A DNA stretch of 64,000 nt, from IMG/VR virus record IMGVR_UViG_3300009370_000009, positions 26,383-90,382 of that record. One strand, 5' to 3'. This document shows, in pieces, positions 223 through 63,781 of this stretch (positions are counted from its first letter, which is position 1; the number at the start of each line of letters is the position of its first letter). The notes beneath the pieces were generated by a model. The model saw only the letters and a program-made list of their open reading frames with translations. It made no database searches and was not told the origin of the DNA. Made by a program: the position numbers and the translations under genes. Source of the stretch: a virus.

Positions 223-3006
223 ATGGCTACAGCTTTTAATGACGGCTATAATTCGTTTACTCATCCGTTAACTTATTCATTCACTGGTACTACTCGAGAG
301 ATTGAGAGTGGCGCCATAACTATTTCAGCGTCTGGTTCTGCTGTCACTGCTGCAACGTTGGTGGAGCATCTTGCTGCTGCGGTTATTGGTGCAGGTTCTG
401 CTGTTATTGCGGCTTATGGTGAGCGGGTTGGCGTTTGTCAGATGTCGGGTTCTGGGTCTGTTTCTTGTGCGGCATCTAAGGTTGCTGTGGCTAGTTCTGC
501 GGTGTCTGGTGCTGGTTCTGTTTCGGCTACGGGTATTGAGGAGTTGTTGGCTTCTTCGTCGCCGTCTGGTTCAGGTTCTGTGTCTGCGACGGCTTATGAG
601 ATAATCCATGCTTCTGTGGCGATTTCTGGTACGGGTTCGTCGGTTACGGTTGGTATTGAAGAGTTGTTGCCGACGGTTGCGTTGTCTGGTTCGGGGTCGG
701 TGTCGTGTTCTGCGATGGAGATTCTGTTTGGTTCTGTTGCTATTTCTGGTACGGGTTCTTCTGTTACTGTTGGCATAGAGGAGTTGTTGCCAACGGTTAC
801 TATGTCTGGGACTGGTACTTTGTCGTGTACTGGTATAGAGGTTCTTCTGGGTGCTGCATCGTTGTCTTGTTCGGGTTCTGCTGTTACTGTTGCTATTGAA
901 GAGTTGTTGCCAACTGTGACTTTGGCTGGGGCGGGCACTGTGTCTGCTACTGCAACGCCTATATTGTTCGCGTCTGCTGCTGTTTCGGGAGCCGGGGCGG
1001 TGTCGGCGTCTGCTGTTGAAATCTTGTATGCTTCTGCGGCACTATCTTGTTCTGGTTCTGCTGTATCTGTCGGGATGGAGGAACTGCTACCAGAGATTAC
1101 TTTGTCTGGAACGGGTACGCTTTCAGTTTCGCATTCTGGCATCCAGTATGCTTCGGCGGCTATTTCCGGGTCTGGTACTGCGGTGTCGGTTGCTGGTCTG
1201 ATTGAATATGCTTCTTCTGCGATAATCGGTGTTGGTTCTACTCTGTCGGTGGCAATCGAGGTATTGCTTGATTCGACAACACTTGCCTGTACTGGAACTC
1301 TGTCAGCGACTGGTACGGAAGTTCTGCATGGCGCTTCAGCGGTTTCTGGTTCTGGTTCTGTGTCGTGCGTTCCGTTGGTGTTTAATGCTGGCGCTGTTGT
1401 ATTGTCTGGATCTGGTTCTGTTGATGCGGATTATGGTACTGGTTTGTTCGCCAGTGCGGCTTTGGCTGGAAGTGGTTCTGCTGTTTCTGCAGCCGGTTTG
1501 ATAGAGCATCTGGCTTCTGCTCTTGTTGGTGCTGGTTCTTCGTTTATTGCTGCTATGGGGATACGATTTGGTAATGCAACTGTTACTGCAAGCGGTAGTG
1601 TTGCTGCTACTGGAACAGAGATCAATCACCGTTCAGTTGCTGTGTCTGGGTCTGGTACGTTGTCTTGCGTTTCGCATGCTGTTAGACCTGGGTATCCTTC
1701 GGTTTTGGCCGGTTCTGGTTCTACTGCTGCTGTTGGTCGGGAAGAACTTCTGGGTGTGTCTGCGTCTAGTGGTTCTGGTAGCGTGTCGGGGACTTCGTAT
1801 AAGATTAGGTATCTGTCGATATCTATATCTGCTACTGGTTCGTCTCTGGCGGCGGGTAGGGAGGTTTTGTTTAATACTTCGGCTCAGTCTGGTATCGGAT
1901 CTTTGGCTGCTGCCCCTGTTGTTGTCAAGAGTTTGAGTGCTGCTATATCTGGTAGTGGTTCGGTTGCAACTGATTATACCAGGCATGCTTTGTCAAGTTC
2001 TGCGTTCTCTGGTGCTGGATCTGTTTCTTCTTCTGGTACTGAGGTGTTGTTTGGTAGTGTTGCTCCTATATCTGTTGGTTCTACGGCTACGGTTGGGAGT
2101 GAGGTGCTGTTAGCTACTTCTACGATATCGGGTGCCGGTTCTGTTTCTGTTACTGGTACGGAGGTTGTGTTTGCCAGTGCGTCGTTGTCTGGTTCTGGCA
2201 CCGTTCCTGATGTTGCGTGCAGCAAGATTGCTGTTGGGTCTTCTGGCCCTGTTGCGGGTTCTGGTTTGGTTGCGGTTATCGCTAGGGAAGTTTTGTTGGT
2301 GGCGAAGGAGTTGTCTGGGTCTGGTTCTGTTCCTGCTGTGTCATCAACGGCGGATCGGATAGTTGATCCTCCAGCCATGTCGGGTGCAGGAGCCGTGACT
2401 GCTGTTGGGGAGATTCAGATTGTGGCTTCTCCTACGTTGTCTGGTTCTGGATCGATTAGTGTTGTGGTTACTCAGATTGGGAGAGCGGTTCTTAGTGCTG
2501 ATAGAAGCAAAGTTGGTGTGATGGATGATTGGCTGTACCTTATGCGTCTTGATAATAATCCTATAACTGAGCAAAATAGGAAATTTGGGATTTCTGAAAA
2601 GTTTAATTCTGTGTCTACGGTTAGTAGGGCAGATGGGAATACTAACAGGTTTTTCCCAACAGATTACAATAAGAAGGTATTTAAGTTTACTTGGAAGTTT
2701 ATAGCAAACGACAAGCAGGGTAATTTCGATTTCTTGAATGGGCGTGATTATTTGAAGTCTGTTGCTGATGCCGATTCGATTCATACTCTTGGTTTGCGTA
2801 GTGCAACGAGTTCGGTATTTGATGCTGATGGGGATTACAGTGTTGTGGTAAAATCATATAGTGAGAATCTTGTCCGTAGGGCGGTTGTTACTGATACTGT
2901 TGATGGTGTTGTGTCTGATGATGCTGAGATTGGGACGCCGTTGAATAGTGATAGTAAGTATGGTAAATATTTTTGGGATGTTACTATGGAGTTTGAAGAG
3001 GTATGA
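223..3006 (+). CDS. Virion protein: long Ser/Gly/Ala/Val 20-aa repeat region fused to a C-terminal distal-tail-like domain
   Basis: 927 aa; SGSGSVS-type repeats with 60/120-nt periodicity; C-terminal GRDYLKS...SYSENLVRR...FWDVTMEFEEV; lies in the tail gene cluster. Confidence 0.75.
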   Translation: MATAFNDGYNSFTHPLTYSFTGTTREIESGAITISASGSAVTAATLVEHLAAAVIGAGSAVIAAYGERVGVCQMSGSGSVSCAASKVAVASSAVSGAGSVSATGIEELLASSSPSGSGSVSATAYEIIHASVAISGTGSSVTVGIEELLPTVALSGSGSVSCSAMEILFGSVAISGTGSSVTVGIEELLPTVTMSGTGTLSCTGIEVLLGAASLSCSGSAVTVAIEELLPTVTLAGAGTVSATATPILFASAAVSGAGAVSASAVEILYASAALSCSGSAVSVGMEELLPEITLSGTGTLSVSHSGIQYASAAISGSGTAVSVAGLIEYASSAIIGVGSTLSVAIEVLLDSTTLACTGTLSATGTEVLHGASAVSGSGSVSCVPLVFNAGAVVLSGSGSVDADYGTGLFASAALAGSGSAVSAAGLIEHLASALVGAGSSFIAAMGIRFGNATVTASGSVAATGTEINHRSVAVSGSGTLSCVSHAVRPGYPSVLAGSGSTAAVGREELLGVSASSGSGSVSGTSYKIRYLSISISATGSSLAAGREVLFNTSAQSGIGSLAAAPVVVKSLSAAISGSGSVATDYTRHALSSSAFSGAGSVSSSGTEVLFGSVAPISVGSTATVGSEVLLATSTISGAGSVSVTGTEVVFASASLSGSGTVPDVACSKIAVGSSGPVAGSGLVAVIAREVLLVAKELSGSGSVPAVSSTADRIVDPPAMSGAGAVTAVGEIQIVASPTLSGSGSISVVVTQIGRAVLSADRSKVGVMDDWLYLMRLDNNPITEQNRKFGISEKFNSVSTVSRADGNTNRFFPTDYNKKVFKFTWKFIANDKQGNFDFLNGRDYLKSVADADSIHTLGLRSATSSVFDADGDYSVVVKSYSENLVRRAVVTDTVDGVVSDDAEIGTPLNSDSKYGKYFWDVTMEFEEV

Positions 3007-53633: not shown

Positions 53634-53847
53634 GTCAATAGATCCTGCTTTGTTTCATGATGTGGTTGAGGATTTGGTCATCAAATCGAAGCAGCCTGGC
53701 AATGATGTTTCTTTATTGTTTTTCAATGAGGAAACTGGCAGTTGGGAGATGGAAATGACTTATGATACTGTGCTGCGAGTTGCCGGCGATAAATTGAAGA
53801 GAGAGACAGAGGAATTCTTGAAGGGATTCCCGGAGAATTTGGTATGA
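53626..53847 (+). CDS. Hypothetical protein
   Basis: AAGGAG RBS. Confidence 0.55.
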   Translation: MPESIDPALFHDVVEDLVIKSKQPGNDVSLLFFNEETGSWEMEMTYDTVLRVAGDKLKRETEEFLKGFPENLV

Positions 53848-54038
53848 TCAAATACCCTGCGAGTATGCGGGAGATAGATAGAAGAATGAAGGCTATGAAT
53901 AAACTCTTCTATGATCTTCGTAGAGATGGAATGACTTATGTAGAGATTGGCCAATTGATGGAGTGCTCTGCGAGTTGGGCTAGACAAAGGGTTATGAAGT
54001 ATGAAGAACTTCTTGAGAAGGGCGTTGTGAATGAATAG
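53844..54038 (+). CDS. Small HTH protein (sigma-70 region 4-like)
   Basis: LRRDGMTYVEIGQLMECSASWARQ. Confidence 0.7.
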   Translation: MIKYPASMREIDRRMKAMNKLFYDLRRDGMTYVEIGQLMECSASWARQRVMKYEELLEKGVVNE

Positions 54039-54354: not shown

Positions 54355-54880
54355 GAAGCATATAATCATGTATAAGAAGAGGACACAAGGCCAGCAGAAG
54401 TTGAGTCCTCTCAAAACATAAAATAACCCTGGTGTTATTCAATATTTGCTCCAATAATTGAAATAATGGCCTGGGTTTACGTAAAAGGTTTATTTTTTTT
54501 TAAATATTGATCTAAATCGGGTCTTTTTTTAGAAATAAATGTTATGGGTTGTCGGCTGGGTAGGGTAGTGTATATAGGGGGGGTATAGTTACCTTATCCA
54601 GCCGGCATTTGGCATTAGCCACGTACATATTTAGGTGAGGCCAATAATGTGGTTTGCGTTAAGTGATTGAATGAGTGATTCAATACCGATTCAATAATCG
54701 TGATTATTGAGTAGTGATTTCTCGAGTCTTTGAGTCAAAGAATTAATTTTGATAAATGCTGTAAATGACCTGGACAATGGTTGAGAATGACACGTATGTA
54801 AGTTGTAAGAGAAATAATGGTAGTTGATTGAGTTTATGATTACCTCAATCAATTACAAAAAAATTTTGTCTTGTCCGTTT

Positions 54881-55049
54881 TGTAACCTTACAAAACCTGC
54901 GTTCTGTAACATTACAAAATCCACGGGCGCTCCATTTCGTAAAATTACAAAGGCCATATTGCGGGGTTGTAACCTTACAAAATTGTTCAATTTGGCACTT
55001 TGTAACATTACAAAATCTCGGGCGCCGGCGACAGCTTTGTAACGTTACA
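54881..55049. repeat. Cluster of six TGTAA-NN-TTACA palindromes
   Basis: 54881, 54905, 54938 (CGTAA variant), 54968, 55001, 55038. Confidence 0.9.
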
Positions 55050-55065
55050 AAGTGAAATTACAATG

Positions 55066-55127
55066 AAAGAGGCCCGCAACCTCCGGGAGCCTTAGGGCTG
55101 CCGTTATGTAAGGTTGCGGGCCTCTTT
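55066..55127 (-). terminator. Long stem-loop downstream of the 55152 gene
   Basis: AAAGAGGCCCGCAACCT...AGGTTGCGGGCCTCTTT, 17-bp stem. Confidence 0.75.
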
Positions 55128-55151
55128 ATTTGTAACGTTCCGACGTGACCC

Positions 55152-55430
55152 CTAGGCGACCCGCGTCACGAGTGGAAGATTACTATCCGTCCACTGGACG
55201 GACGCCTTCTCCCACCCCGCGACGCGTGCCCCGGTCGTGATCGCGGAACGAATCCGGCCACGATCCTTGGAGGTGTCTGCCTTGAATTTGGAACCTTCCA
55301 AAGCAGCCGCCTTCCCAATGGGGCATCCGTCCAGCAGTTTGGAAACTTCCAAAGCCAGAGCGGAGGGCTTCCGGCCCTTGCCGGGCACGCGCCCGGCAAA
55401 GTCCGAAGGGTCAATGAATTTGGGCGCCAT
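55152..55430 (-). CDS. Small basic putative DNA-binding protein (cassette gene A1)
   Basis: 92 aa; PGKGRKPSALA...CPIGK...RGRIRSAITTGA...SV.WTD...RVA; GAAAGG RBS. Confidence 0.8.
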   Translation of the reverse strand: MAPKFIDPSDFAGRVPGKGRKPSALALEVSKLLDGCPIGKAAALEGSKFKADTSKDRGRIRSAITTGARVAGWEKASVQWTDSNLPLVTRVA

Positions 55431-55546
55431 TTCTGGAACCTTTCATTGAATGTCGGCGTTATGTAATTCTGAATCATTCAGTAAATGAATGACTCAAACA
55501 TTACAGAACGGAGCCGGGGAACCTGCTCCCCCGAACCACAAATACT

Positions 55547-55607
55547 AATTTAGCACACCACTATTCTCTCGCGTAAACCTTGCGTTTCACTCAACAAATT
55601 ACTTTCT
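55547..55607 (-). promoter_or_regulatory. Cassette promoter: AGAAAGTAATTT...ACGCAA-N27-TAAATT
   Basis: Fixed spacing shared with four other cassettes. Confidence 0.6.
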
Positions 55608-55750
55608 CCCAACCATTTCCATTCCGCCATTTGGAAACATTACAACTTAATAATAATCTAAATAATACAGAAATCTGTTTACTGAATTGAAACTTAATAA
55701 TATTACAAAATAATAAGTAAATAAATTACAAATTCATTCAATCTCGAGTT

Positions 55751-55829
55751 TGTAAAATTACAAAATTCCACGGGAGCGCGTTGTTGCTGGAATTTGAGCG
55801 CTCCCGTAGGGGGCTTTTGTAATTTTACA
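55751..55829. repeat. Box-hairpin-box element 1
   Basis: TGTAAAATTACA...ACGGGAGCGC-18nt-GCGCTCCCGT...TGTAATTTTACA. Confidence 0.9.
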
Positions 55830-55908
55830 GAGTGGGGTTGCCGGCGATTTGTAAGGTTACAGGCTGGCTCCTGGTTTGTAACCTTACATAGTGAAATTAC
55901 CAAATGAA

Positions 55909-55962
55909 AAGGCCCCGGTAGCAACTCCCGTAGGGTGGAGTTTGTAATGCTACCGGGGCCTT
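55909..55962 (-). terminator. Stem-loop downstream of the 55997 gene
   Basis: AAGGCCCCGGTAGCA...TGCTACCGGGGCCTT. Confidence 0.75.
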
Positions 55963-55996
55963 CTGTTCTTTGTAATGATACGGTCCGCCTAGCGGG

Positions 55997-56308
55997 CTAG
56001 GCGACGCGAACGACCAGCGGGTGGTTGTCGTCGGTCCATGACACGGAGACCTTCGACCAGCCCGCCATCTTCGCGCCGGTGGTGATGCCGGATCGGATGC
56101 GACCACGTTCAGCCTTGTCGTCAGGCTTGACCGTAATCTTACCCATCAGGAATCCCTTACCGACGGGGCAACCCTTCGCATCCGCGGCGACCTGTGTCGC
56201 CAACGCGGAAGGCTTGCGCCCGCGGCCCGGAACCTTACCGGCCATGCTGGCCGGGTCGATGAAGTTCGGAATGGTAATCTTTCCCCTTTCTGGTTTGTAA
56301 TCTGCCAA
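55997..56308 (-). CDS. Small basic putative DNA-binding protein (A2, paralogue of A1)
   Basis: FIDP...AGKVPGRGRKPSALA...CPVGK...RGRIRSGITTGA...WTD...RVA. Confidence 0.8.
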   Translation of the reverse strand: MADYKPERGKITIPNFIDPASMAGKVPGRGRKPSALATQVAADAKGCPVGKGFLMGKITVKPDDKAERGRIRSGITTGAKMAGWSKVSVSWTDDNHPLVVRVA

Positions 56309-56552
56309 CCATCCGGTACCAATCAGATGGTCTGCGTTCTGGTTTGTAACCTTTCGGCAGAGGCTCTAGCGTGTGTGTGCGGCAACCGGGCGAGGGTGCT
56401 AGCAACCCTCGCCCGGTCTGTAAGGTATTGACCGTTGGTCCGTAGTTCAGACGGCACCATCCCGACGGGGGCTTTGTAATGAGACGAATCTTCGTCGTCG
56501 CTACCCCCGTGACTAGTGTGATGGTCGGTACCTACGCCTTGCCACGAACAAC

Positions 56553-56635
56553 AAGGTATGCGATAGCCCACCCTTTCAGCGAATGTTGCGTGACACCCTG
56601 GAAATTACTTTCTGGCTTGTTAGGTGCCCCTAACA
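56553..56635 (-). promoter_or_regulatory. Cassette promoter with DtxR/IdeR-like palindrome
   Basis: TGTTAGGTGCCCCTAACA 56618-35; AAATTACTTTCT; ACGCAA-N27-TACCTT. Confidence 0.6.
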
Positions 56636-56744
56636 GGTCGGGAATAATGTAGCCTGGAAGGTTACAAAGTGTCAGCCTGGAAGATTACATAATCCCTAAG
56701 CGCCGGCGCCGGCTAAGTAAGATTACAAAATTCATTCCACATTG

Positions 56745-56825
56745 TGTAAAATTACAAAGCTTTCCTAGGGGAGCGCACAGAAGCGAAAACGAACGTGCGC
56801 TCCCCCAGAATTTTGTAATCTTACA
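56745..56825. repeat. Box-hairpin-box element 2
   Basis: TGTAAAATTACA...GGGGAGCGCAC-16nt-GTGCGCTCCCC...TGTAATCTTACA. Confidence 0.9.
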
Positions 56826-56839
56826 CAGTGTTTTGTAAC

Positions 56840-56868
56840 AAAAAAAAGCCCGCCCCGTAGGGCGGGCC
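56840..56868 (-). terminator. Intrinsic terminator
   Basis: aaaaaaaa-gcccgccc-cgta-gggcgggc (U tract on the - strand). Confidence 0.85.
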
Positions 56869-56880
56869 TCTTTTGTAATA

Positions 56881-56973
56881 CTACTTCTTGGGGGGCGTGT
56901 ACCGCCCGTTGGCCTTGGGCCGCCGATTCGTAATGGTACGAATCTTAGGCTTGGACCGCTTGCCGATCGGCAT
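56881..56973 (-). CDS. 30-aa highly basic micropeptide (not in the ORF track)
   Basis: MPIGKRSKPKIRTITNRRPKANGRYTPPKK; GAAAGGTTACA RBS; followed by a terminator. Confidence 0.65.
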   Translation of the reverse strand: MPIGKRSKPKIRTITNRRPKANGRYTPPKK

Positions 56974-56990
56974 GGTCTGTAACCTTTCTG

Positions 56991-57173
56991 CTATACGTCG
57001 ATGGGACGCTTGTGGATGGGGATGTTTTTGTAACATTTGTTACAGATGTCGTCGTCGTTGTATTTCGACAGGATGGTGGAGCAGTTGCGAGTCTTACAAA
57101 CTCGCTGGGGCGCTCCGGGCGCCATCCTCGCCTTCTGGCGTTCCCGCTTGCTGGGCTTTCGTGGTTTGGCCAC
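56991..57173 (-). CDS. Basic zinc-finger protein
   Basis: GTG 57173 after GAAAGGTTACA; CKTRNCSTILSKYNDDDICNKC. Confidence 0.75.
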   Translation of the reverse strand: MAKPRKPSKRERQKARMAPGAPQRVCKTRNCSTILSKYNDDDICNKCYKNIPIHKRPIDV

Positions 57174-57234
57174 TATGTAACCTTTCTGTTGTGGTGGTGG
57201 GGAGGGTGTGACCCCTCCCCACCGGACGACTATG

Positions 57235-57450
57235 TTAGCCGTGGACCTTGATGGTCTTTGTAAGGTTCGAGTAGCGAACCCACACTTCGGCATCTCCCGC
57301 GTGACGCTGGGCGTCGCGGTTGTTGATGTAGCGACCAGAGTCAGGATGTAATCCTACAATCTGGAAGTCCATCCCCTCCTGCCACGCCAGTAACACGGCG
57401 GGGCCAGAGGTGTAGTCCCGCCCATAGGCGGGAACCACGGTGATGTTCAT
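57235..57450 (-). CDS. Conserved small phage protein
   Basis: ATG 57450 after GAAAGG; PAYGRDY....V...W..G.DF. Confidence 0.75.
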   Translation of the reverse strand: MNITVVPAYGRDYTSGPAVLLAWQEGMDFQIVGLHPDSGRYINNRDAQRHAGDAEVWVRYSNLTKTIKVHG

Positions 57451-57529
57451 AACGTAACCTTTCGGTAGTAGGTAAGGCGTGGGAGGGACTAGGGCTACTG
57501 GCGGAACCCCGGTCCCTCCCACAACCAAT

Positions 57530-57613
57530 ACGGTAGGTCATTCCCCAACCTATTGACGAACGTTGCGTTACACCTAGAAAATTACTTTCTCGCATTGTTA
57601 GGTGTACCTAACA
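57530..57613 (-). promoter_or_regulatory. Cassette promoter with DtxR/IdeR-like palindrome
   Basis: TGTTAGGTGTACCTAACA 57596-613; AAATTACTTTCT; ACGCAA-N27-TACCGT. Confidence 0.6.
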
Positions 57614-57695
57614 GTAAACAAATAATCAGATTGGAATATTACAAACCAATCTAATAATCTTCATGTAAAATTACAAATCCACTAAAGCCACGTTC

Positions 57696-57771
57696 TGTAA
57701 AATTACAAAAATCTACGGGAGCGCATTTTTACTGCAATTTGAGCGCTCCCGTCGCGTTTTGTAATTTTACA
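57696..57771. repeat. Box-hairpin-box element 3
   Basis: TGTAAAATTACA...ACGGGAGCGC-18nt-GCGCTCCCGT...TGTAATTTTACA; extra box at 57664. Confidence 0.9.
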
Positions 57772-57790
57772 GGATGGGTTTTGTAATTAT

Positions 57791-57831
57791 GAAAGGGCCA
57801 GGGTAGTTTGTAATTCTACCCTGACCCTTTC
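57791..57831 (-). terminator. Stem-loop downstream of the 57851 gene
   Basis: GAAAGGGCCAGGGTAG...CTACCCTGACCCTTTC. Confidence 0.7.
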
Positions 57832-57850
57832 GTTTTGTAACCTTCCGGGC

Positions 57851-58549
57851 TTAGCCGTGGCGCTCCACCGCCTCGTCCCAGTTGGCCTGCGATTCGTAGG
57901 CTTCCAGAACGCCGCCTTCGATGGAGAGCCGGGATGCCCGCATCTCCAGCGAGTTTGTAAGGTCGGCCATCATCTCGTCCCACTGGAGATCTGTAACGTG
58001 ACGCTTTACGGTCCATGCCTTGCGCCCCTTTGTAGGAATACGCAACGCCTGCGGGGCCTTCCGGTTCCATTCCTTGACGAGATTACGAAACTCGCCCACC
58101 TTACTAACCCACACGATGCCACCCTGGACGATGCCACCGGACACGGGCGGGAGGTCCATCGTGATGGTTCGGCATGGCTCCAGCATGGGGCAAGTGTTAC
58201 AAATCTCCAGAGCAGCGTGAACCCTGGAAATTACATTCTTCTCAGAGGGAACGGGGAAGAATGGATTCTTACTAACTCGCCGTGGGGTGCCGACGCCAGA
58301 CTTGCGGTTCGCCCGGATGGTCGGAAGCAGAACCGGGGTCGCCTCCCAGTCACGCTTACAAGCAGCCCTGGAAGTTACAAACCGGTACCGGTCGGTCACC
58401 CGCGACTTGCGGATGTAGTGGCCGGTAGTGGGCCGGTCTGTAATTCGGCAGGTCAGCCACTTGGCAACCTTACGGAATCCGACCGGGCGGGGTGGGCCGA
58501 TCAGGGCGTCCAGCATCCGGTCTAGGACCATGGTCAGGTGGTGGGTCAT
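57851..58549 (-). CDS. Extended WhiB-like protein (B1)
   Basis: AAC...NPFFP...ALEICNTCPMLEPC...GIVQGG; GAAAGG RBS. Confidence 0.75.
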   Translation of the reverse strand: MTHHLTMVLDRMLDALIGPPRPVGFRKVAKWLTCRITDRPTTGHYIRKSRVTDRYRFVTSRAACKRDWEATPVLLPTIRANRKSGVGTPRRVSKNPFFPVPSEKNVISRVHAALEICNTCPMLEPCRTITMDLPPVSGGIVQGGIVWVSKVGEFRNLVKEWNRKAPQALRIPTKGRKAWTVKRHVTDLQWDEMMADLTNSLEMRASRLSIEGGVLEAYESQANWDEAVERHG

Positions 58550-58800
58550 TATGTAGCCTTTCGGGGCTGCGGTCCCGGTCGATTTGACCGGGCTGATGGG
58601 TCAAATCGTATCGTCTATCATTCTGTAATTAGGCGCTTCTGGCCCAATTCTCTACATCGTCACACAATCGTAACAGTCACGATAACAGTCATTATCTTAC
58701 AGAATGGCCTGGGTCCCTGGAAATTACAAATAATAATAGGTATCCAAATTACAAAGTCAATAATACCCCCCTAAATTACAAAACCACTCAACTCCCACTT

Positions 58801-58877
58801 TGTAAAATTACAAAAAACTACGGGTGGACGCTTTGTACTGAATTCATGTCCACCCGTCAAATTTTTGTAATTTTACA
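58801..58877. repeat. Box-hairpin-box element 4
   Basis: TGTAAAATTACA...ACGGGTGGAC-18nt-GTCCACCCGT...TGTAATTTTACA. Confidence 0.9.
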
Positions 58878-58895
58878 TTGTGGGGTAAATTACAG

Positions 58896-58921
58896 AACCC
58901 CCCGGCTTGTGCCGGGGGGTT
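58896..58921 (-). terminator. Stem-loop downstream of the 58941 gene
   Basis: AACCCCCCGGC-ttgt-GCCGGGGGGTT. Confidence 0.75.
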
Positions 58922-58940
58922 TGTAAGGTTTCAGGTTGGG

Positions 58941-59687
58941 TTATGTATGCTTACGGACTGCCTTGGCCCATGCTTCGGCCATTGCGGTTTCGTAAGTTTC
59001 GTCGGCCCAATCGTAGGGGTCGAATCCGGCTACCTCGCGGGCGGTGTCTTTGTAATCATTCATAACGATTTCCAGAAGGGCACCGCGGAAGTCGTTGGCC
59101 CGGGTCAGGTTTGTAAGGTATTCCTCTAGTTGCGTGACGGTGGGGGTCCGTCGTAGGTCCCATGCGTTCCGGCCTTTTGTAGGAATACGAAGTGACCGCG
59201 GGGCCTTCTGGTTCCACGCCTTGATGAGTGCCCGGAATTCTGTAATCTTATCAACAAAGACCATCCCGCCTTGAACGATCCCGGTAGCGACCGGGGGAGT
59301 TTGTAGGGTTACGTCCCGGCACTCAGCCCGCACCGGGCAAACCTTACAAATCTCCAGCGCGGCGTGGACCCTAGCGACCTTGTTCTTCTCAGAATCGACC
59401 GGGAAGAATGGATTCTTACAAAGTGCCCGGGGGGTGCCCAATCCCGACTTCCTATTGTTACGAATCACCGGCAACATTACAGGGTCGGCTTCCCAATCGC
59501 GACCGTGGCAGGCCGCCTGAGAAGTTACAAAGTTGTGCCGGTCGGTAATCCGCGACTTGCGGATCGTCCAGAAATTACGAACCAGCGGACGGTCGCTGAT
59601 CCGGCAGGTCAGCCATTCCGTAGCTTTACGAATTGGCAGAATCTCGCCGGGCTTGGCGAGTCGGACTTTCGGGAACCAGTTCATCAT
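58941..59687 (-). CDS. Extended WhiB-like protein (B2, paralogue of B1)
   Basis: AAC...NPFFP...ALEICKVCPVRAEC...GIVQGG; ATG 59687 or 59684 after GAAAG. Confidence 0.75.
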   Translation of the reverse strand: MMNWFPKVRLAKPGEILPIRKATEWLTCRISDRPLVRNFWTIRKSRITDRHNFVTSQAACHGRDWEADPVMLPVIRNNRKSGLGTPRALCKNPFFPVDSEKNKVARVHAALEICKVCPVRAECRDVTLQTPPVATGIVQGGMVFVDKITEFRALIKAWNQKAPRSLRIPTKGRNAWDLRRTPTVTQLEEYLTNLTRANDFRGALLEIVMNDYKDTAREVAGFDPYDWADETYETAMAEAWAKAVRKHT

Positions 59688-59747
59688 GTAATCTTTCGAT
59701 TTGGGTGATCCGACTATGTAGGTCGGCTGACCCGGAGGGTCACCCAA

Positions 59748-59820
59748 ATTCTACAGCACGGCACTTTGTAATGAGAACCTTTGCTTTTAATTACAAATCT
59801 ATTGTTAGCTGGGCCTAACA
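59748..59820 (-). promoter_or_regulatory. Cassette promoter with imperfect DtxR/IdeR-like palindrome
   Basis: TGTTAGCTGGGCCTAACA 59803-20; AAGCAA-N27-TAGAAT. Confidence 0.55.
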
Positions 59821-59898
59821 CGCCGGCAACCGATTCGTCCGTAACATTACAAACCAATAATCTCTATGTAAAATTACAAATCCACTAAATCCTGGGTT

Positions 59899-59968
59899 TG
59901 TAAAATTACAAAAAACTACGGGAGGGCAACTTATTCCTGGTTTCCGCCCTCCCGCTCGTGAAATTACA
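59899..59968. repeat. Box-hairpin element 5 (right box degenerate)
   Basis: TGTAAAATTACA...CGGGAGGGC-18nt-GCCCTCCCG; extra box at 59867. Confidence 0.85.
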
Positions 59969-60242
59969 AATGTGTCAATAATTTTTGCGTGAAATTACAA
60001 ATCTACTCAATAATCTAGTTTCAAACATTACAAAACGCTGGGGGTCGCCGGCTTTGTAATTTTACGGGGGAGGTGGTGGGTTTGTAATTTGTGGGGAAAT
60101 TCGTAATTGTTACAGTTATGTGACGATGTGGGAAATTGGGCGGAATTGGGCCAAATTACAAATCGGGGGACGATAGCGTGGGGGCGTTCCGCCGAACGGC
60201 GGGACCGGCCCCACATAGGCCGTTGACCCCGAAGGGGATGAC

Positions 60243-60722
60243 ATGCTGTACCTGTCCACCGCAATGATCCGGGCCGCGATCCTCGCGGCCCTGCCGCGAC
60301 TCCGCGGCGACACCGCGAAGCGTGACCGCTGGGCCGCGCTGTTCGCGGGTTGGTTGGCCCCGTCCACCGGGACCGCCACGACCATCACGGCCCCGACCAC
60401 CGGGACCGCTTCCAACGTGGCCCGCCGCGCATGGAAGCACGGCGACCCCTTGAAGGGCACCGTCCCGGTGTCCCTGTCCCGCTGGACCTTCGACGACCTG
60501 ATGGTGAAGGTGTCCACCGCGACCCCCACCGTCGCATCCCAGCGGATCGCGATCACTCAGGCCGTGGACAAGGTTCAGGCCGCGGTCGAGGCGATCCTCG
60601 CGGACAAGGGCGCGACGCTGGACGCGATCCCGGAGGTCGCGGTGTCCGTCGATCCGACCGGCGAGGGCGTCATCGTGACGGCCTACTACCACGACCACGG
60701 CGAGGTCCGCCCCGGCGGCTGA
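60243..60722 (+). CDS. GC-rich hypothetical protein (C1)
   Basis: YLS...ALPRLRGD.AKRDRWAALFAGWLAP...; GAAGGGG RBS; paralogue of 62311-62751. Confidence 0.8.
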   Translation: MLYLSTAMIRAAILAALPRLRGDTAKRDRWAALFAGWLAPSTGTATTITAPTTGTASNVARRAWKHGDPLKGTVPVSLSRWTFDDLMVKVSTATPTVASQRIAITQAVDKVQAAVEAILADKGATLDAIPEVAVSVDPTGEGVIVTAYYHDHGEVRPGG

Positions 60723-60734
60723 CCCCGGTAGGCG

Positions 60735-60767
60735 CGAGGCCCCCGGTCCGTTGGGCCGGGGGCCTCG
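60735..60767 (+). terminator. Stem-loop after C1
   Basis: CGAGGCCCCCGG...CCGGGGGCCTCG. Confidence 0.7.
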
Positions 60768-60897
60768 TCGCGTCCGGCCTGGGGGCGTCCAACTCGAGGT
60801 GCCCCAATAATCGAATTGGAAAATTACAAACTCGCCTAGCACATGGCGGGGGAAATTACAAATCCACTTTAGTTAGAGAAGCTAACTACTTGCTATC

Positions 60898-60973
60898 CGA
60901 GGGGCGCTCGTAGCGGAAGCGATATGCCACGAGCGCCCCTCGAATTTTTGTAATTTTCCTTTGTAATTTTACA
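60898..60973. repeat. Hairpin-box element 6
   Basis: CGAGGGGCGCTCGT-17nt-ACGAGCGCCCCTCG...TGTAATTTT..TGTAATTTTACA. Confidence 0.8.
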
Positions 60974-60997
60974 TAGTGGGTGTTGGTAATTTACAGA

Positions 60998-61023
60998 ACC
61001 CCCCGGCTGGTTCGCCGGGGGGT
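60998..61023 (-). terminator. Stem-loop downstream of the 61055 gene
   Basis: ACCCCCCGGC-tggttc-GCCGGGGGGT, nearly identical to 58896. Confidence 0.75.
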
Positions 61024-61054
61024 CTGTAGGGTTACGGACTGGGCTTCTGTAAGG

Positions 61055-61390
61055 TTACGTGTGCCAGATCCAGAGTTCGCCGTCCACGATCTCGCAGGTC
61101 ATCTTGTAATTTGCCGGAATGTAATTCTGCTTACAGCCTGAGAGGTGACGGAAGTAGTCTGCCATCATGCGGGCACAGGCCATGCGTGGCGAGTAGTGCT
61201 TTGTAACCTTAGTCAGTGCGTTGTCGAGGGGCGGCCCGGTCAGGATCAGAACCATGTCGGGATCGTTGGCCCAGTTTGTAATTGCTTCCAGCCATTCATC
61301 GTTCAGGCCGGATGCGCCGGGGTTCGCACATTCTGTAATCTCATGTAGGGACATGGAACGGGCGCTAGGGTTGATGATGCTTTCGGACAT
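61055..61390 (-). CDS. Hypothetical protein
   Basis: GAAAGGTTACACAATG start context. Confidence 0.7.
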   Translation of the reverse strand: MSESIINPSARSMSLHEITECANPGASGLNDEWLEAITNWANDPDMVLILTGPPLDNALTKVTKHYSPRMACARMMADYFRHLSGCKQNYIPANYKMTCEIVDGELWIWHT

Positions 61391-61401
61391 TGTGTAACCT
61401 T

Positions 61402-61587
61402 TCAGTTAGTCGGGACTTTGGTGCCGTGGATGATCCCGCAGGATGCGATCCCACATTCTGTAATCTTGTCATTCTGGAAGATTCCTTCCAGCGCCGTGTC
61501 GGCGGCGGTAGTGGTGGCATAGGTGCCAACCTTGACGGTGCGGCCGGTGTCGCTAGCCACGTACCAGACGGTCCATTGCTCTCTCAT
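61402..61587 (-). CDS. Hypothetical protein
   Basis: ATG 61587 after an identical GAAAGGTTACACAATG. Confidence 0.7.
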   Translation of the reverse strand: MREQWTVWYVASDTGRTVKVGTYATTTAADTALEGIFQNDKITECGIASCGIIHGTKVPTN

Positions 61588-61598
61588 TGTGTAACCTT

Positions 61599-61823
61599 TC
61601 AGCCGCAGTAGTCTGCGGGGTTGGGGCGGGTATCGCCGGTGTAGTATTCCCAGACGTAGTGCCAGTGGCATGAGTCTGTAATTATTGCTTCTAGGGCAAG
61701 GCAGGCTCCCCCGAAAGCAGCGACGCCGAAAATTACAAACAGGCATCGGATCAGGGTATCCCGCGTGGTGATCAGCGGGGTACCGGGGTGAATGTGGCGG
61801 GTGATGTCTAGGTGGTTCCTCAT
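61599..61823 (-). CDS. Small membrane protein, possibly leaderless
   Basis: TM-like CLFVIFGVAAFGGACLALEAII; TAGAGT -10 seven nt upstream of the ATG. Confidence 0.55.
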   Translation of the reverse strand: MRNHLDITRHIHPGTPLITTRDTLIRCLFVIFGVAAFGGACLALEAIITDSCHWHYVWEYYTGDTRPNPADYCG

Positions 61824-61989
61824 GGGAACCACTCTACACCAGCCTGGTTTGTAATTTGCTATTCATTTCTTATCCATTACATTCATGTTACAAATTACAA
61901 ACAATGTAAATGTCAAATTACTGTTACCCTTTTAGTAAAGTTCCAATAATGCGCTATGAAAGATTACAAACTCGTTCAATAATGTGAAT

Positions 61990-62067
61990 TGTAAAATTAC
62001 AAAGTTGCCGGGTGTTCATGGCACGCACTTCCGCCAGGAACACCCGCCGGCGATTTTATAATTTAAT
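61990..62067. repeat. Box-hairpin element 7 (right box degenerate)
   Basis: TGTAAAATTACA...CGGGTGTTC-20nt-GAACACCCG...TATAATTTAATA. Confidence 0.8.
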
Positions 62068-62310
62068 AGGCGATTTTCTCGGCAAATTCTATTTCCTAAA
62101 ACTCAGTTTCTCCTGAATTTTTATTCTCTAAATGGGCAGTTTCTCGGCGGATTTATTGCGTGGTTTGTCAATTGAATTGGCGGAGAAAATTACGTAATGG
62201 GAATAGAATTTCTGATCGCGTTCGGCCTGGTGATGCTCGATGTCCGACCCGTGGCCGAACGCGGAAAGGCGCCCGACCCCTTTCGGGACCGGGCGCCTGC
62301 CGCGCTGGGA

Positions 62311-62751
62311 TTAGCGGTCCAGCATGTAGGCGGTGACGGTCACGCCTTCAGCGTGCGGGTCCACGGACACGGCAGCCTGCGGGTCGCAGTCCAGCCCGTC
62401 CGCGAGATCCGCGATCGCGGACTGGATCTTGTCCACGGCTTGCGTGATCGCGATTCGCTGGGAATCCACGCTGGGGGTGGCGCTGGACGCCTTGACCATT
62501 AGGTCATCGAACGTCCAGCGGGCGATGCTGACCGGGCGGGTTCCGCGCAGCGGGTCGCCCGCCTTCCATGCGCGGCGGGCGACATTCGATGCCAGCCGCG
62601 TCGTGCCAGCGGTGATGGTGGTGCCACCATGGTTGGGGGCCAACCAGCCCGCGAACAACGCGGCCCAGCGATCGCGCTTCGCAGCGTCGCCGCGCAAGCG
62701 TGGAAGCGCGAGGATGATCGCCTTCCGGATGAGTGGGAGGGATAGGTACAT
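62311..62751 (-). CDS. GC-rich hypothetical protein (C2, inverted paralogue of C1)
   Basis: MYLS...ALPRLRGDAAKRDRWAALFAGWLAP...; GAAAGG RBS; stem-loop at 62268-62297. Confidence 0.8.
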   Translation of the reverse strand: MYLSLPLIRKAIILALPRLRGDAAKRDRWAALFAGWLAPNHGGTTITAGTTRLASNVARRAWKAGDPLRGTRPVSIARWTFDDLMVKASSATPSVDSQRIAITQAVDKIQSAIADLADGLDCDPQAAVSVDPHAEGVTVTAYMLDR

Positions 62752-62855
62752 GATGATCCTTTCGGGATCGGCGCCCGGTCGTTCCGGGTTCCCCGTCAGC
62801 GTAGCAGCATTCCGTAGCCTTTCCGCGCATCGGGCGGGCAATTCGTAGGGGCAAT

Positions 62856-62896
62856 TTCTATTCCTAATAAGTCCAGAATTCTATTCCTAATAAGTC
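62856..62896. repeat. 18-bp direct repeat TTCTATTCCTAATAAGTC x2
   Basis: 62856-73 and 62879-96. Confidence 0.85.
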
Positions 62897-62952
62897 ATTA
62901 ATTCTATTATGTAATAACTCAATTTCTAGACGAATTTAATTCGCTAAATAGC

Positions 62953-63028
62953 AAAATTACAAAAAAAAGGGAGCGCAAGCTCGCAAGCGCCTCGGTTGCG
63001 CTCCCTTCAAATTTTTTGTAATTTTACA
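62953..63028. repeat. Box-hairpin-box element 8
   Basis: AAAATTACA...AAGGGAGCGCAA-17nt-TTGCGCTCCCTT...TGTAATTTTACA. Confidence 0.88.
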
Positions 63029-63063
63029 GGCTGGGTTTGTAATTTTCCATAGAATAGACGCGG

Positions 63064-63105
63064 GAGAGTCCCCACCTTGTCCGACTTTGTAAGGTGGGGA
63101 CTCTC
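63064..63105 (-). terminator. Stem-loop downstream of the 63141 gene
   Basis: GAGAGTCCCCACCTT...AAGGTGGGGACTCTC. Confidence 0.75.
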
Positions 63106-63140
63106 AACCGCCCCGGAACCCATCCCGGGAGTTTGTAAGG

Positions 63141-63452
63141 TTACGCCATCGGGATCAGGTGGTCGTTCTCCCGGTGGGCGGGGACGGAGGCGTCGTGTGC
63201 GCCCAGTCCCCACGCCTTCTGCCAGAGGTCGGCCACGAATTCGGCCTGCTCCAGAGTGCGGCAGGGGAGGTGGAAGATTACAGAGTCGGACTGGTCGCCG
63301 GTCGGGGACTGGCACCAGATCTCCACTTTGTAATCTGCCCGGTCGTTGGCGACCACGAAGGCGGCTTCGACCTTGCCCGCCGGGGTGCGCATGGGGATGA
63401 TGGGACGGACTGCCATTCCGTCGCATCCGGTGGTTTCGGGTGATTCGTTCAT
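63141..63452 (-). CDS. Hypothetical protein
   Basis: ATG 63452 after AAGGAG-acattacaga. Confidence 0.7.
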   Translation of the reverse strand: MNESPETTGCDGMAVRPIIPMRTPAGKVEAAFVVANDRADYKVEIWCQSPTGDQSDSVIFHLPCRTLEQAEFVADLWQKAWGLGAHDASVPAHRENDHLIPMA

Positions 63453-63498
63453 TCTGTAATGTCTCCTTGTCGGGTACTTGGCTTCCCCAACAAGTACC

Positions 63499-63581
63499 AA
63501 GGTACATGATGCCGTTATGTAATGTCGTGCTTTGCGTGTGTCGTAGCTGAATCGTAACAATCGTGTTAGGTGTGCCTAACA
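63499..63581 (-). promoter_or_regulatory. Cassette promoter with DtxR/IdeR-like palindrome
   Basis: TGTTAGGTGTGCCTAACA 63564-81; ACGCAA-N27-TACCTT. Confidence 0.6.
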
Positions 63582-63781
63582 GGGTGGGAATAATGGAATT
63601 CAATAAATTACAGAATGGCGGCCTCTCTGTGTGTGTTCAATAATCCATCCTGTAAAATTACAAAGTCGTGGGTGGCGAAAATTACAGAGTAGCTGCGTGT
63701 GTGGCCGGCGTTCGGAATAATCGTTTTCGTAAAATTACAAAGTGGGTGCCGGCGAGGTAGTTAGGGAAGCTAACTACCAGG

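Follow-up and report, generated by a model that had tools for sequence, protein, structure and literature searches.

An array of small gene cassettes joined by repeated hairpin- and promoter-like spacers in an uncultured marine phage

The final ~9 kb of the genome of an uncultured marine phage is made up of small self-contained genes in a row, and the near-identical spacers between them combine a terminator, a hairpin and promoter-like sequences. This gene block occupies 54.85-63.8 kb of the window, the 64,000-nt stretch of DNA analysed here, which is part of a 90-kb record that is ~87% complete; the contig opens within a gene, and a GC hairpin lies at its other end. Since a DnaE-type polymerase and WhiB-like genes are present, the phage looks like an actinophage. 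The block makes up ~10% of the genome, is rich in repeats and palindromes, and has a GC content of 52-62% compared with ~42% elsewhere; a GC-rich island is kept at the same map position across the phage family. Judged from its sequence, the block is hyperplastic and carries small, probably early genes of the host-takeover type in standardised transcription units. The genes and terminators are as follows.

55058-55135, minus strand, terminator-like hairpin after g92, 17-bp stem
55152-55430, minus strand, g92, 92-aa protein with a GRGRK motif, no assigned function
55911-55960, minus strand, terminator-like hairpin after g103, loop contains ATTACAAA
55997-56272, minus strand, g103, paralog of g92, start codon uncertain
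56848-56867, minus strand, predicted canonical intrinsic terminator after the g72-g61zn-g29 operon
56881-57450, minus strand, three-gene operon g72-g61zn-g29, GAAAGGTTAC ahead of each gene
56881-56973, minus strand, g29, 30 aa, very basic
56991-57176, minus strand, g61zn, zinc-ribbon-like
57235-57450, minus strand, g72
57795-57827, minus strand, predicted terminator hairpin after W1, gene-strand U.G wobble and conserved AATTACAAA loop
57851-58549, minus strand, W1, 232-aa WhiB-like protein (PF02467, E 4e-4, under the curated cut-off)
58941-59687, minus strand, W2, 248-aa WhiB-like protein (PF02467, 28.3 bits, above the cut-off)
60243-60722, plus strand, P+, 159-aa ORFan, 71% GC, without the TGTAA motif, inverted cassette
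61055-61823, minus strand, operon g77-g61-g111, gene content differs among relatives
61055-61390, minus strand, g111
61402-61587, minus strand, g61
61599-61823, minus strand, g77
62311-62751, minus strand, P-, paralog of P+, 68% GC
63141-63452, minus strand, g105, 103-aa ORFan

The cargo had been described in the earlier note as duplicated in pairs with one pair inverted, and this is confirmed: g92 and g103 are 58% identical, W1 and W2 55%, and P+ and P- 73%, the last pair lying in opposite orientations. All copies of GAAAGGTTAC in the window, six in number, lie on the gene strand.

All eight of the box-hairpin-box elements described in the earlier note were found, at the starts given there. 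Four of them (E1, E2, E3 and E4) are complete, with a box, a GC stem of 9-11 bp, a loop of 16-18 nt, the complementary stem and a second box. No strand is assigned to the elements.

55751-55830, E1, box-hairpin-box, stem ACGGGAGCGC, 18-nt loop, 81 bits with the covariance model
56745-56825, E2, box-hairpin-box, stem GGGGAGCGCAC, 16-nt loop of family B
57696-57771, E3, box-hairpin-box, stem ACGGGAGCGC, loop of family A, 82 bits
58801-58877, E4, box-hairpin-box, stem ACGGGTGGAC
59899-59955, E5, left box and hairpin, stem CGGGAGGGC, without a right box, 53 bits
60898-60975, E6, hairpin and right box, stem CGAGGGGCGCTCGT, E 0.02
61990-62067, E7, left box and hairpin, stem CGGGTGTTC, 20-nt loop, right box degenerate, 60 bits
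62953-63029, E8, hairpin, stem AAGGGAGCGCAA, left box without TGT

The loops of 16-20 nt are partly conserved, reading TCAAAT..CAG on the gene strand. E3 forms an imperfect palindrome of ~75 nt, with inverted boxes at its ends and 30-nt arms that are 90% complementary. The left box of E6 is displaced by a ~35-nt insert, and its T-run lies on the plus strand, downstream of the plus-strand gene P+. In most elements a gap of 3-9 nt separates the stem from the T-run; in E8 T-runs adjoin the 12-bp stem directly on both strands. A covariance model trained on 23 elements from the window and its relatives gave seven strong matches (E <= 5e-7) plus E6, all at 55753-63027; window positions 1-54800 and the first 26.5 kb of the genome gave none. 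Within the 90-kb record the elements are thus confined to 55.7-63.0 kb of the window.

Pairing of the hairpin is under selection. In the stems 95.6% of cells are paired, compared with only 41-59% in slid controls. The covariation score was 0.252 versus 0.080 in shuffles, none of 500 shuffles reaching the observed value, and 33 double-change cells were observed where 9.2 were expected. The stems are perfectly Watson-Crick, and changes in their core are all compensated on both sides without G.U intermediates. Compensated changes also separate orthologous elements, as in GCGC/GCGC to GTGC/GCAC and GGAC/GTCC to GGGC/GCCC.

The box-hairpin-box is the centre of a larger composite spacer between cassettes. 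On the gene (minus) strand, the first half runs from the stop codon through an ordinary terminator hairpin and two to five TTACAAA boxes to the GC hairpin. An A-tract precedes this hairpin and a T-tract follows it, so that either strand reads as a hairpin and then a U-run. The second half contains one to three tandem, strand-specific units of the form TTTGTAAT-N9-13-ATTAT(TG), followed by a leader, often with a TGTTAGG-N4-CCTAACA palindrome, the RBS GAAAGGTTACA and the start codon. The earlier note had placed the element mostly downstream of the terminator, and a separate terminator-like hairpin does precede it in seven of the eight spacers. The main promoter-like units and palindromes are listed below.

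54850-55055, no strand assigned, gene-free cluster of 6-7 TGTAA-NN-TTACA palindromes, spacing 24-37 bp, at the downstream end of the array, conserved in relatives
57596-57614, no strand assigned, palindrome TGTTAGG-N4-CCTAACA just after promoter-like units, further copies at 56618, 59803 and 63564
57617-57677, minus strand, two tandem promoter-like units TTTGTAAT-N11-ATTATT
58727-58782, minus strand, two tandem promoter-like units upstream of W1
59973-60034, minus strand, two tandem promoter-like units upstream of E5 and W2
60803-60830, minus strand, orphan promoter-like unit pointing into the 3′ end of P+
61942-62003, minus strand, two tandem promoter-like units upstream of the g77 operon

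The architecture is restricted to the block and obeys strict rules of strand and orientation, and the boxes are conserved in relatives. TGTAA-NN-TTACA and the TTACAAA half-site are roughly 100-fold enriched in the array. TGTAANNTTACA is found 22 times in the 9.2-kb array and once in the other 54.5 kb of the window; for TTACAAA and TTTGTAA the counts are 86 and 6. On the 5′ side of the hairpin TTACAA outnumbers TTGTAA by 22 to 4, and on the 3′ side the counts are 9 and 25. Sense-oriented TTACAAA boxes also occur in 3′ regions, in terminator loops and beside start and stop codons. That the motif is written into coding sequence holds for W1, W2 and g111, where it is concentrated, but not for g92, g103, P+ and P-, which have none; overall, coding sequence contains 30 copies of TGTAA/TTACA versus 9.4 ± 2.1 in synonymous-codon shuffles. 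The unit TTTGTAA[TC]-N9-13-ATTAT is present 14 times on the minus strand, with no copy on the plus strand or in the other 54.8 kb, and nine relatives carry 6-16 units per contig, always on the gene strand. The second unit at 58727-58782 overlaps a sigma-70-like match, TTGACT-16-TATTAT. The orphan unit is probably a relic of rearrangement. In relatives ~100 nt at 57617-57677 are nearly invariant, conservation stopping just past the second ATTATTTGT, and non-coding heptamers are 87% conserved against a background of 71%. A phage whose DNA polymerase is only 62% identical has 13 copies of the 12-nt TGTAA-NN-TTACA palindrome in its syntenic GC-rich island.

We also compared the array with twelve marine metagenome contigs, ~75% identical, that carry the same array. 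The contigs are collinear as far as the first WhiB-like gene; beyond it, cassette order, content and copy number differ, and the junctions lie in repeated inter-cassette sequence, as expected of the exchangeable cassettes proposed in the earlier note. These junctions fall in spacer repeats; where a single gene differs, they may instead fall in an 18-nt stop-RBS-start linker. The repeats concerned in the window are the following.

58864-58955, no strand assigned, direct repeat A, right box, terminator and gene end
60960-61059, no strand assigned, direct repeat B, ~85% identical to repeat A
61388-61405, minus strand, 18-nt linker cTGAAAGGTTACACAATG, copy 1, 100% identical to copy 2
61585-61602, minus strand, 18-nt linker, copy 2, the two copies flanking g61

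The g111/g77 operon has five different gene contents among ten contigs, and g61 belongs to a different operon in relatives. A minor contig of one source sample has the g105/g61 joint seen in relatives; contig L097 has a different small gene upstream of g105, at the position of g61 in other relatives. Two contigs, L095 and L101, are 99.7% identical, and L101 has an extra gene of ~320 nt between linker direct repeats. At a larger scale, direct repeats A and B, ~95 nt long, flank the block W2-E5-P+-E6, which is missing or placed differently in relatives; W2 itself is present only in the window and missing from all related contigs. Since viable rearrangements must break between genes, breakpoints in spacers are partly trivial.

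We consider it fairly probable that the block is a hyperplastic region of the PeSL (promoter-early stem-loop) type, named after regulatory cassettes of T4-type phages (Arbiol et al. 2010 PMC2839356; Comeau et al. 2014 PMC4122927), and that it is shuffled by recombination between standardised regulatory joints and not in an integron-like manner. Spacers and linkers are near-identical repeats, and for this reason general recombination between them could insert, delete, duplicate, move and invert genes, as proposed for PeSLs. The hairpin would be a backstop terminator working in both directions, or an insulator, so that units stay independent whichever way they point. We read the TTTGTAAT/ATTAT units as candidate promoters, and TGTAA-NN-TTACA as a putative site for a dimeric DNA-binding regulator of phage or host. 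The distance from the TTTGTAAT box down to the -10-like ATTAT is only ~11 nt and does not match sigma-70 spacing; consequently, the promoter model requires an additional factor or a non-standard polymerase contact. Several further features argue against this explanation: the hairpin loop is far larger than that of typical intrinsic terminators, the T-run is mostly set off from the stem by the gap of 3-9 nt, the conserved part of the loop is needless for a plain terminator, most elements already follow an ordinary terminator, and the explanation gives the sense-oriented TTACAAA boxes no role.

A possible but doubtful alternative is that the palindromes and oriented half-sites form an operator array, bound by one repressor or activator that switches the whole block, with the hairpin incidental. 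This idea is modelled on mycobacteriophage stoperators or T4 MotA boxes. The 12-mer is itself palindromic, as expected for a dimer site, confined to the block and kept in the distant relative; half-sites are oriented with transcription, a box lies at about -30 from a -10-like element in 14 units, and the sites of the gene-free cluster are about three helical turns apart. The block also encodes WhiB-like proteins, a group that binds sigma region 4 in other actinobacteria. However, no binder was found: g92 and g103 have no recognisable DNA-binding fold, and a hint of a helix-turn-helix was seen only in the ORF at 53844-54038, which weakly matches sigma-70 region 4. Hairpin covariation and loop conservation are also left unexplained. 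An operator array complements recombination between regulatory joints and does not exclude it.

We regard as unlikely an integron-like exchange in which a dedicated recombinase or nuclease acts on the hairpin, as single-stranded DNA or cruciform framed by the palindromic boxes, and so excises and inserts cassettes. Each cassette has about one element, the stems are perfect and compensated, and their folding energy has no strand asymmetry, which fits selection at the DNA level. The half-elements E5 and E6 bracket the sole inverted cassette, and HNH endonuclease and exonuclease genes lie elsewhere in the genome. A mechanism specific to the hairpin, as advanced in the earlier note, is nevertheless not supported. 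The 90-kb record yielded no tyrosine or serine recombinase, integrase, resolvase or HUH enzyme, nor a phage single-subunit RNA polymerase; as it is ~87% complete, a recombinase could sit in the missing part. The cassettes have their own promoter-like units, which integron cassettes do not. Single ORFs move and are joined at the 18-nt linker, which has no hairpin, and the breakpoints are therefore in repeated regulatory sequence generally. The ~95-nt homology flanking the block-level event is enough for general recombination, and P+ in relatives has complete elements on both flanks.

It is highly improbable that a selfish MITE- or REP-like unit of ~78 bp spread between genes and became useful only secondarily: the imperfect palindrome, the terminal inverted boxes and several diverged, strictly intergenic copies suit such an element, but orthologous copies keep their positions across contigs 25% diverged and are conserved above coding DNA, no Y1/HUH transposase, copy elsewhere in the genome (covariance-model search) or target-site duplication was seen, and the boxes extend outward as oriented arrays of promoter and terminator regions. 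Equally improbable is that the block is the leading injected end and that its repeats stop injection or protect the DNA, after the model of the first-step-transfer region of T5; its size, composition, palindromes and constant map position would suit this, but the contig is a fragment, the record has no reported terminal repeats, and in L097 the array is followed by another P copy and plus-strand genes, not by a terminus.

Among known systems, the host-takeover module of Bacillus phage SPO1 consists of many small early operons, each with a promoter, a strong RBS and a terminator. The array likewise packs small early-type operons closely in a row and gives them standardised strong signals, but it has no evidence of a terminal-repeat location and its spacers carry palindromes and a further hairpin. 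Stoperators of cluster A mycobacteriophages are asymmetric intergenic repressor sites oriented with transcription. The array resembles them in having dozens of copies of one short, intergenic, transcription-oriented site in a putative actinophage; in contrast to stoperators, its candidate sites are palindromes or switch direction at every hairpin, lie within a single 9-kb block, and have no repressor found for them. Like integron attC sites, the array has about one imperfect palindrome per gene-sized exchanged unit. It differs in that no IntI-type integrase was found in the 90-kb record, in the promoter-like units and terminators of its cassettes, in stems free of extrahelical bases, and in junctions that also fall at the hairpin-less linker. 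The analogy with PeSLs drawn in the earlier note is functionally apt, with cassettes exchanged at repeated joints. Both systems cluster small ORFan genes in a hyperplastic region, with a repeated composite of stem-loop and promoter (putative here) between the genes; where close relatives differ by an insertion, deletion, replacement or move, the change ends in these repeats, and no dedicated recombinase is known for either. The array, however, is from an unrelated phage lineage with unrelated sequence, its hairpin is additional to an ordinary terminator and has a partly conserved 16-20-nt loop and a palindromic box frame, its promoter-like unit is not sigma-70-spaced, and the 18-nt linker is a second, finer joint that exchanges single ORFs. 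We believe that the array is a variant of the PeSL cassettes of T4-like phages, built in a more elaborate way.

The window covers bases 26383-90382 of a linear virus record of 90,382 bp with an estimated completeness of ~87%. Window bases 1-54400 carry + strand genes at a GC content of ~42% and encode tail proteins, a DnaE-type DNA polymerase, a DnaB helicase, a primase and the large terminase, together with an exonuclease, an HNH endonuclease and a C5 methyltransferase. The isolates closest in polymerase sequence are large Streptomyces phages, at an identity of just 39%. From 54.8 kb to the window end the GC content rises to 52-62% and gene direction changes to the - strand. The genes of this hyperplastic array are small and mostly ORFans: 11 of the 13 have no Pfam match, and PHROG likewise gave nothing for the paralogs g92/g103 or for g105, g111 and P+. 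Because two array genes, the paralogs W1 and W2, are WhiB-like by Pfam, we infer that the host is actinobacterial. The WhiB-like proteins (57851-58549 and 58941-59687) are 2-3 times the usual length, with an insert of ~25 aa ahead of the motif NPFFP and, at the C terminus, an extension of ~100 aa in which PTKGR(K/N)AW occurs, and may couple sigma binding to DNA binding. The inverted paralogs P+ and P- (60243-60722, + strand, and 62311-62751, - strand; 815-1320 in the related contig L097) have a GC content of 68-71% and no TGTAA motif, and occur in 2-3 copies in either orientation. No homologs of known function were found for them, and P+ gave no usable match in the ESM Atlas. Flanked by a separate, TTCTATTCCTAATAAG-like repeat family (62054-62088, 62119-62153 and 62902-62936), the P genes look like a distinct cassette type, possibly foreign.

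All eight box-hairpin-box elements of the earlier note were found at the following start positions; they are confined to 55.7-63.0 kb, and five of the eight are complete or nearly so.

Box-hairpin-box elements of the array (start, element)
55751, E1
56745, E2
57696, E3
58801, E4
59899, E5, without right box
60898, E6, left box displaced
61990, E7, right box degenerate
62953, E8

The covariance-model search that the earlier note had asked for was made over the whole 90-kb record with a model trained on 23 elements. It returned seven strong matches plus E6, all within 55753-63027, and none in the other ~80 kb of the genome. Pairing of the hairpin is under selection. In the stems 95.6% of cells were paired, compared with just 41-59% in slid controls, and the covariation score was 0.252 versus 0.080 in shuffles, with 0 of 500 shuffles reaching the observed value. 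The differences between orthologous elements of relatives are compensated double changes. The best matches to curated Rfam covariance models were far below gathering scores, the exact box-hairpin-box pattern had no match across IMG/VR, and the array region gave no megablast match against 50,697 phage records.

An A-tract lies ahead of each E hairpin and a T-tract behind it, and therefore either strand reads as a hairpin followed by a U-run. E8 has a textbook terminator shape on both strands, and the T-run of E6 is on the + strand, where it follows the + strand gene P+. The elements other than E8 have 16-20-nt loops and 3-9 nt separating the stem from the T-run. Predicted stabilities range from -18 to -33 kcal/mol, and a simple terminator scan picks up just the inner parts of E1 and E3. 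The simplest role of the hairpin would be that of a two-way backstop terminator or insulator. Such a role leaves the conserved half of the loop (TCAAAT..CAG in family A, CGCTTTCGCTTC in family B) unexplained. Among 22 distinct hairpins, the comparison of sense with antisense folding energy came out 14 against 8, with a mean difference of -0.8 kcal/mol, which does not settle whether the hairpin acts at the RNA or the DNA level. The stems are perfect Watson-Crick helices without extrahelical bases; since they are perfect and show no strand asymmetry, a DNA-level role is possible. The non-coding stretch 61943-62153, containing E7 and two ~35-nt direct repeats, is the best-conserved part of the array (85-89% identical to relatives versus ~75% in other parts) and may either encode a regulatory RNA or serve as an origin-like site.

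The boxes are strongly concentrated in the array: TTACAAA/TTTGTAA occurs 86 times in its 9.2 kb versus 6 times in the other 54.5 kb of the window, and TGTAANNTTACA 22 times versus once. In coding DNA the motif is in excess overall (30 TGTAA/TTACA versus 9.4 ± 2.1 in synonymous shuffles), but the excess is uneven among genes, being concentrated in W1, W2 and g111 and zero in g92, g103, P+ and P-. Read on the gene strand, a spacer runs from the stop codon through a terminator-like hairpin, TTACAAA boxes and the E hairpin to TTTGTAA boxes. Several of the terminator-like hairpins hold ATTACAAA in the loop, and one has a conserved U.G wobble, present on the gene strand only. Sense-oriented TTACAAA is found in 3′ regions, in terminator loops and beside start and stop codons. 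Box orientation flips at the E hairpin, TTACAA versus TTGTAA being 22:4 on the 5′ side and 9:25 on the 3′ side.

The 3′ boxes form part of a bipartite unit, TTTGTAA[TC]-N9-13-ATTAT(TG), one form of which is TTTGTAAT-N11-ATTATTG. The window has 14 copies, all of them on the - strand and none in the 54.8 kb outside the array, and nine relatives have 6-16 units per contig, in every case on the gene strand. The units are arranged as tandem pairs with a spacing of ~32 nt. Alignment of the orthologous regions shows a stretch of ~100 nt, running from the hairpin to the second ATTATTTGT, that is almost invariant; conservation collapses beyond it, as would be expected if transcription started at that point. 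We infer that these promoter-like units function as promoters. The box lies ~11 nt from the -10-like ATTAT, a non-sigma-70 spacing, and its position resembles that of the T4 MotA-type activator box. A classical sigma-70 reading, with TTGTAA or TTTACA as the -35 sequence, fits the W1 promoter alone and was not retained as the general explanation. The RBS, GAAAGGTTAC, is present in 6 copies, on the gene strand only. Further signals lie in the leaders, where a second palindrome, TGTTAGG-N4-CCTAACA, is frequent; all four of its copies are inside the array.

Leader motifs and further palindromes
56618-56636, 57596-57614, 59803-59821, 63564-63582; palindrome TGTTAGG-N4-CCTAAC(A), just past promoter-like units in four cassettes
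L105 17677, 18284, 18908 and L106 ~1166; the same palindrome
55590-55612, 56590-56612, 57568-57595, - strand; leader motif AGAAAGTAATTT-N7-G(T/A)(A/C)ACGCAA in three cassettes
60868-60890, 63757-63780; third palindrome GTAGTTAG-N6-CTAACTAC, one copy between E6 and its box

The leader motif is kept in relatives; between it and the RBS lie variable hairpins of 100-250 nt. The candidate regulator-site sequences of the array are TGTAAAATTACA and TGTTAGG-N4-CCTAACA, and a gene-free cluster at 54850-55055 has 6-7 TGTAA-NN-TTACA sites spaced by about three helical turns. A literature search on the 12-mer palindromes found nothing relevant. The penultimate gene of the + strand block, a 64-aa ORF adjoining the array (53844-54038, + strand), is 82-85% conserved in relatives. 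Its match to a sigma-70 region-4-like helix-turn-helix is weak (E 0.001, below cut-off), and the ORF may encode a binder of one of the palindromes. The g92/g103 proteins were considered as box binders on account of an RGRK motif and rejected: they have no PDB, PHROG or Pfam relative, and an AlphaFold model (pLDDT 74) had no recognisable fold and no significant Foldseek match.

A pattern scan of metagenome contigs identified 12 true relatives, all marine, which share both the motif saturation and the elements of the window. Their identity is 76-78% to the window and 89-99.7% to one another. From 50.0 kb to ~58.95 kb they are collinear with the window, and they diverge beyond. The proposal that the cassettes are exchangeable was borne out, since past ~58.95 kb their content and order differ between relatives and the indels, replacements and moves end in repeats.

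Cassette order in the window and in contigs of relatives (cassettes separated by slashes)
Window: W1 / W2 / P+ / g111-g61-g77 / P- / g105
L095 and L100: W1 / g111-g77 / P+ / P-' / g105-g61; L095 stops after g77
L088, L089, L091 and L092: W1 / g77 / P+ / P-' / g105-g61
L097: as L100, with another small gene where L100 has g61, plus a third copy of P
L101: g111-znP-g77, znP being a zinc-ribbon paralog of g61zn
L098: znP-g77

L095 and L101 are 99.7% identical in their common part, yet L101 differs by the insertion of a ~320-nt gene, flanked by direct repeats CAT(T/A)(G/A)TGTAACCTTTCAG. On the gene strand this repeat is the linker: stop codon TGA, RBS GAAAGG, spacer TTACAnn and start codon ATG. 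Because contigs this similar differ by one gene, gene turnover is very recent. In the window g61 is likewise bracketed by two identical 18-nt linker copies, and the W2-E5-P+-E6 block by ~95-nt direct repeats consisting of right box, terminator and gene end. The parts are mosaic, for W2 combines an E3-type promoter copy with a leader of the TGTTAGG type, whereas the leader of its paralog W1 is of another type. In L097 a ~45-aa Cys-rich ORF (2020-2140, reverse strand) lies upstream of g105 instead of g61, a gene replacement at one position; the L097 sequence past the window end has no counterpart in this record. W1 as an IMG/VR query returned no relatives.

The assembled contigs of the probable source metagenomes contain one minor alternative joint and no circles: the relatives' joint of g105 to g61 is present on a minor contig (depth 6.4 versus ~25) from one source sample. 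Joints 57777>63714 and 63008>56812, at a depth of ~2, were too weak for use. Source-sample contigs break at 54518-54667, a two-allele stretch with 12 differences in 150 nt, and at 57206-57217, a GC hairpin (GGGGAGGGTGTGACCCCTCCCC).

Among IMG/VR contigs, about 140 encode a polymerase with 58-62% identity to that of this phage. One of them, G001, has a GC-elevated island at the syntenic position that holds 13 TGTAA-NN-TTACA palindromes. It also has three g92 paralogs, and in its cassettes the terminator is joined by a second hairpin, with GCGGGYGTAAG...CTTACRCCCGC as stem base. In G002 and G005, too, a GC-rich island occupies the map position seen in the window; G002 uses a TGTTAGG-N4-CCTAAC palindrome, lacks the TGTAA palindrome and has one hairpin per spacer. 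Since the window, G001, G002 and G005 all have the island, the cassette island is a family trait, and the box-hairpin-box is a lineage-specific elaboration of it. Gene order could not be compared with G001, G002 and G005, which at ~60% polymerase identity are too diverged; just 3 ORFs in the first 20 kb of G001 match this genome. The TGTTAGG palindrome, common to this array and that of G002 (~62% polymerase identity), is a candidate for the operator of a regulator acting across the family. In all four family phages examined the island consists of small cassettes, with GC 10-25 points above the rest and the same map position.

GC-rich islands
Window, 54.8-64 kb
L086, 6-13 kb
L105/L106, 18-23 kb
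L107/L108, 19-24 kb

The exchange probably proceeds by general, homology-driven recombination between repeats. The junctions lie in whatever sequence repeats (spacer, terminator or RBS linker), which matches the prediction of such recombination. Alternatively, the TGTAA/TTACA joints could be a dedicated recombination signal for a phage protein and the putative early region a programmed, diversity-generating cassette exchanger, which we consider improbable. The joints would then comprise the box-hairpin-box and the RBS linker, together with the motif copies inside W1, W2 and g111; the hairpin would be a folded DNA substrate, and the array would not be a passive victim of homologous recombination. 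The search of the remaining genome for a recombinase or HUH nuclease suggested in the earlier note found none in the ~87%-complete 90-kb record: tyrosine recombinase (PF00589) gave nothing at E ≤ 1 although the positive controls were detected, and a serine recombinase, a Y1/HUH (RAYT) transposase (PF01797) and a T7-type RNA polymerase were absent. An integron/attC-like mechanism, an analogy drawn in the earlier note, does not fit: the record encodes no integrase, promoter-like units belong to the cassettes themselves, and the linker at which single genes move has no hairpin. Integron cassettes are promoterless and end in an imperfect hairpin with extrahelical bases, whereas here we find promoter-like units, terminators and perfect stems. 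A REP/MITE-like mobile palindrome was rejected, PF01797 being absent and element copies being orthologous between relatives.

Homology-driven exchange has also been proposed for the promoter-early stem-loop (PeSL) cassettes of T4-type phages, in which sigma-70-like early promoters and terminator stem-loops, clustered in hyperplastic regions, mediate indels, replacements and mini-circles (PMC2839356, PMC4122927). The present findings extend modular shuffling of the PeSL type to a family of uncultured marine phages resembling actinophages, with shuffling visible at two scales, that of whole transcription units and that of single ORFs at the 18-nt stop-RBS-start linker. They also offer candidate regulatory parts for hosts that are not yet culturable, namely a putative promoter unit, two operator-like palindromes and a two-way hairpin. 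The likeness to PeSLs drawn earlier stands for the way of working, as the relatives' differences end in repeats, but not for the sequence family, which is unrelated; the array thus appears to work like PeSLs without belonging to their sequence family. As in PeSLs, the elements are confined to a hyperplastic region in which the relatives' indels, replacements and moves end in repeats. A putative counterpart of the PeSL promoter is the strand-specific promoter-like unit that follows the selected stem-loop in 14 places, with a spacing that is not sigma-70. Unlike T4-type PeSL phages, this phage has a DnaE-type polymerase (39% identical to that of Streptomyces phages), WhiB-like genes and an unrelated motif.
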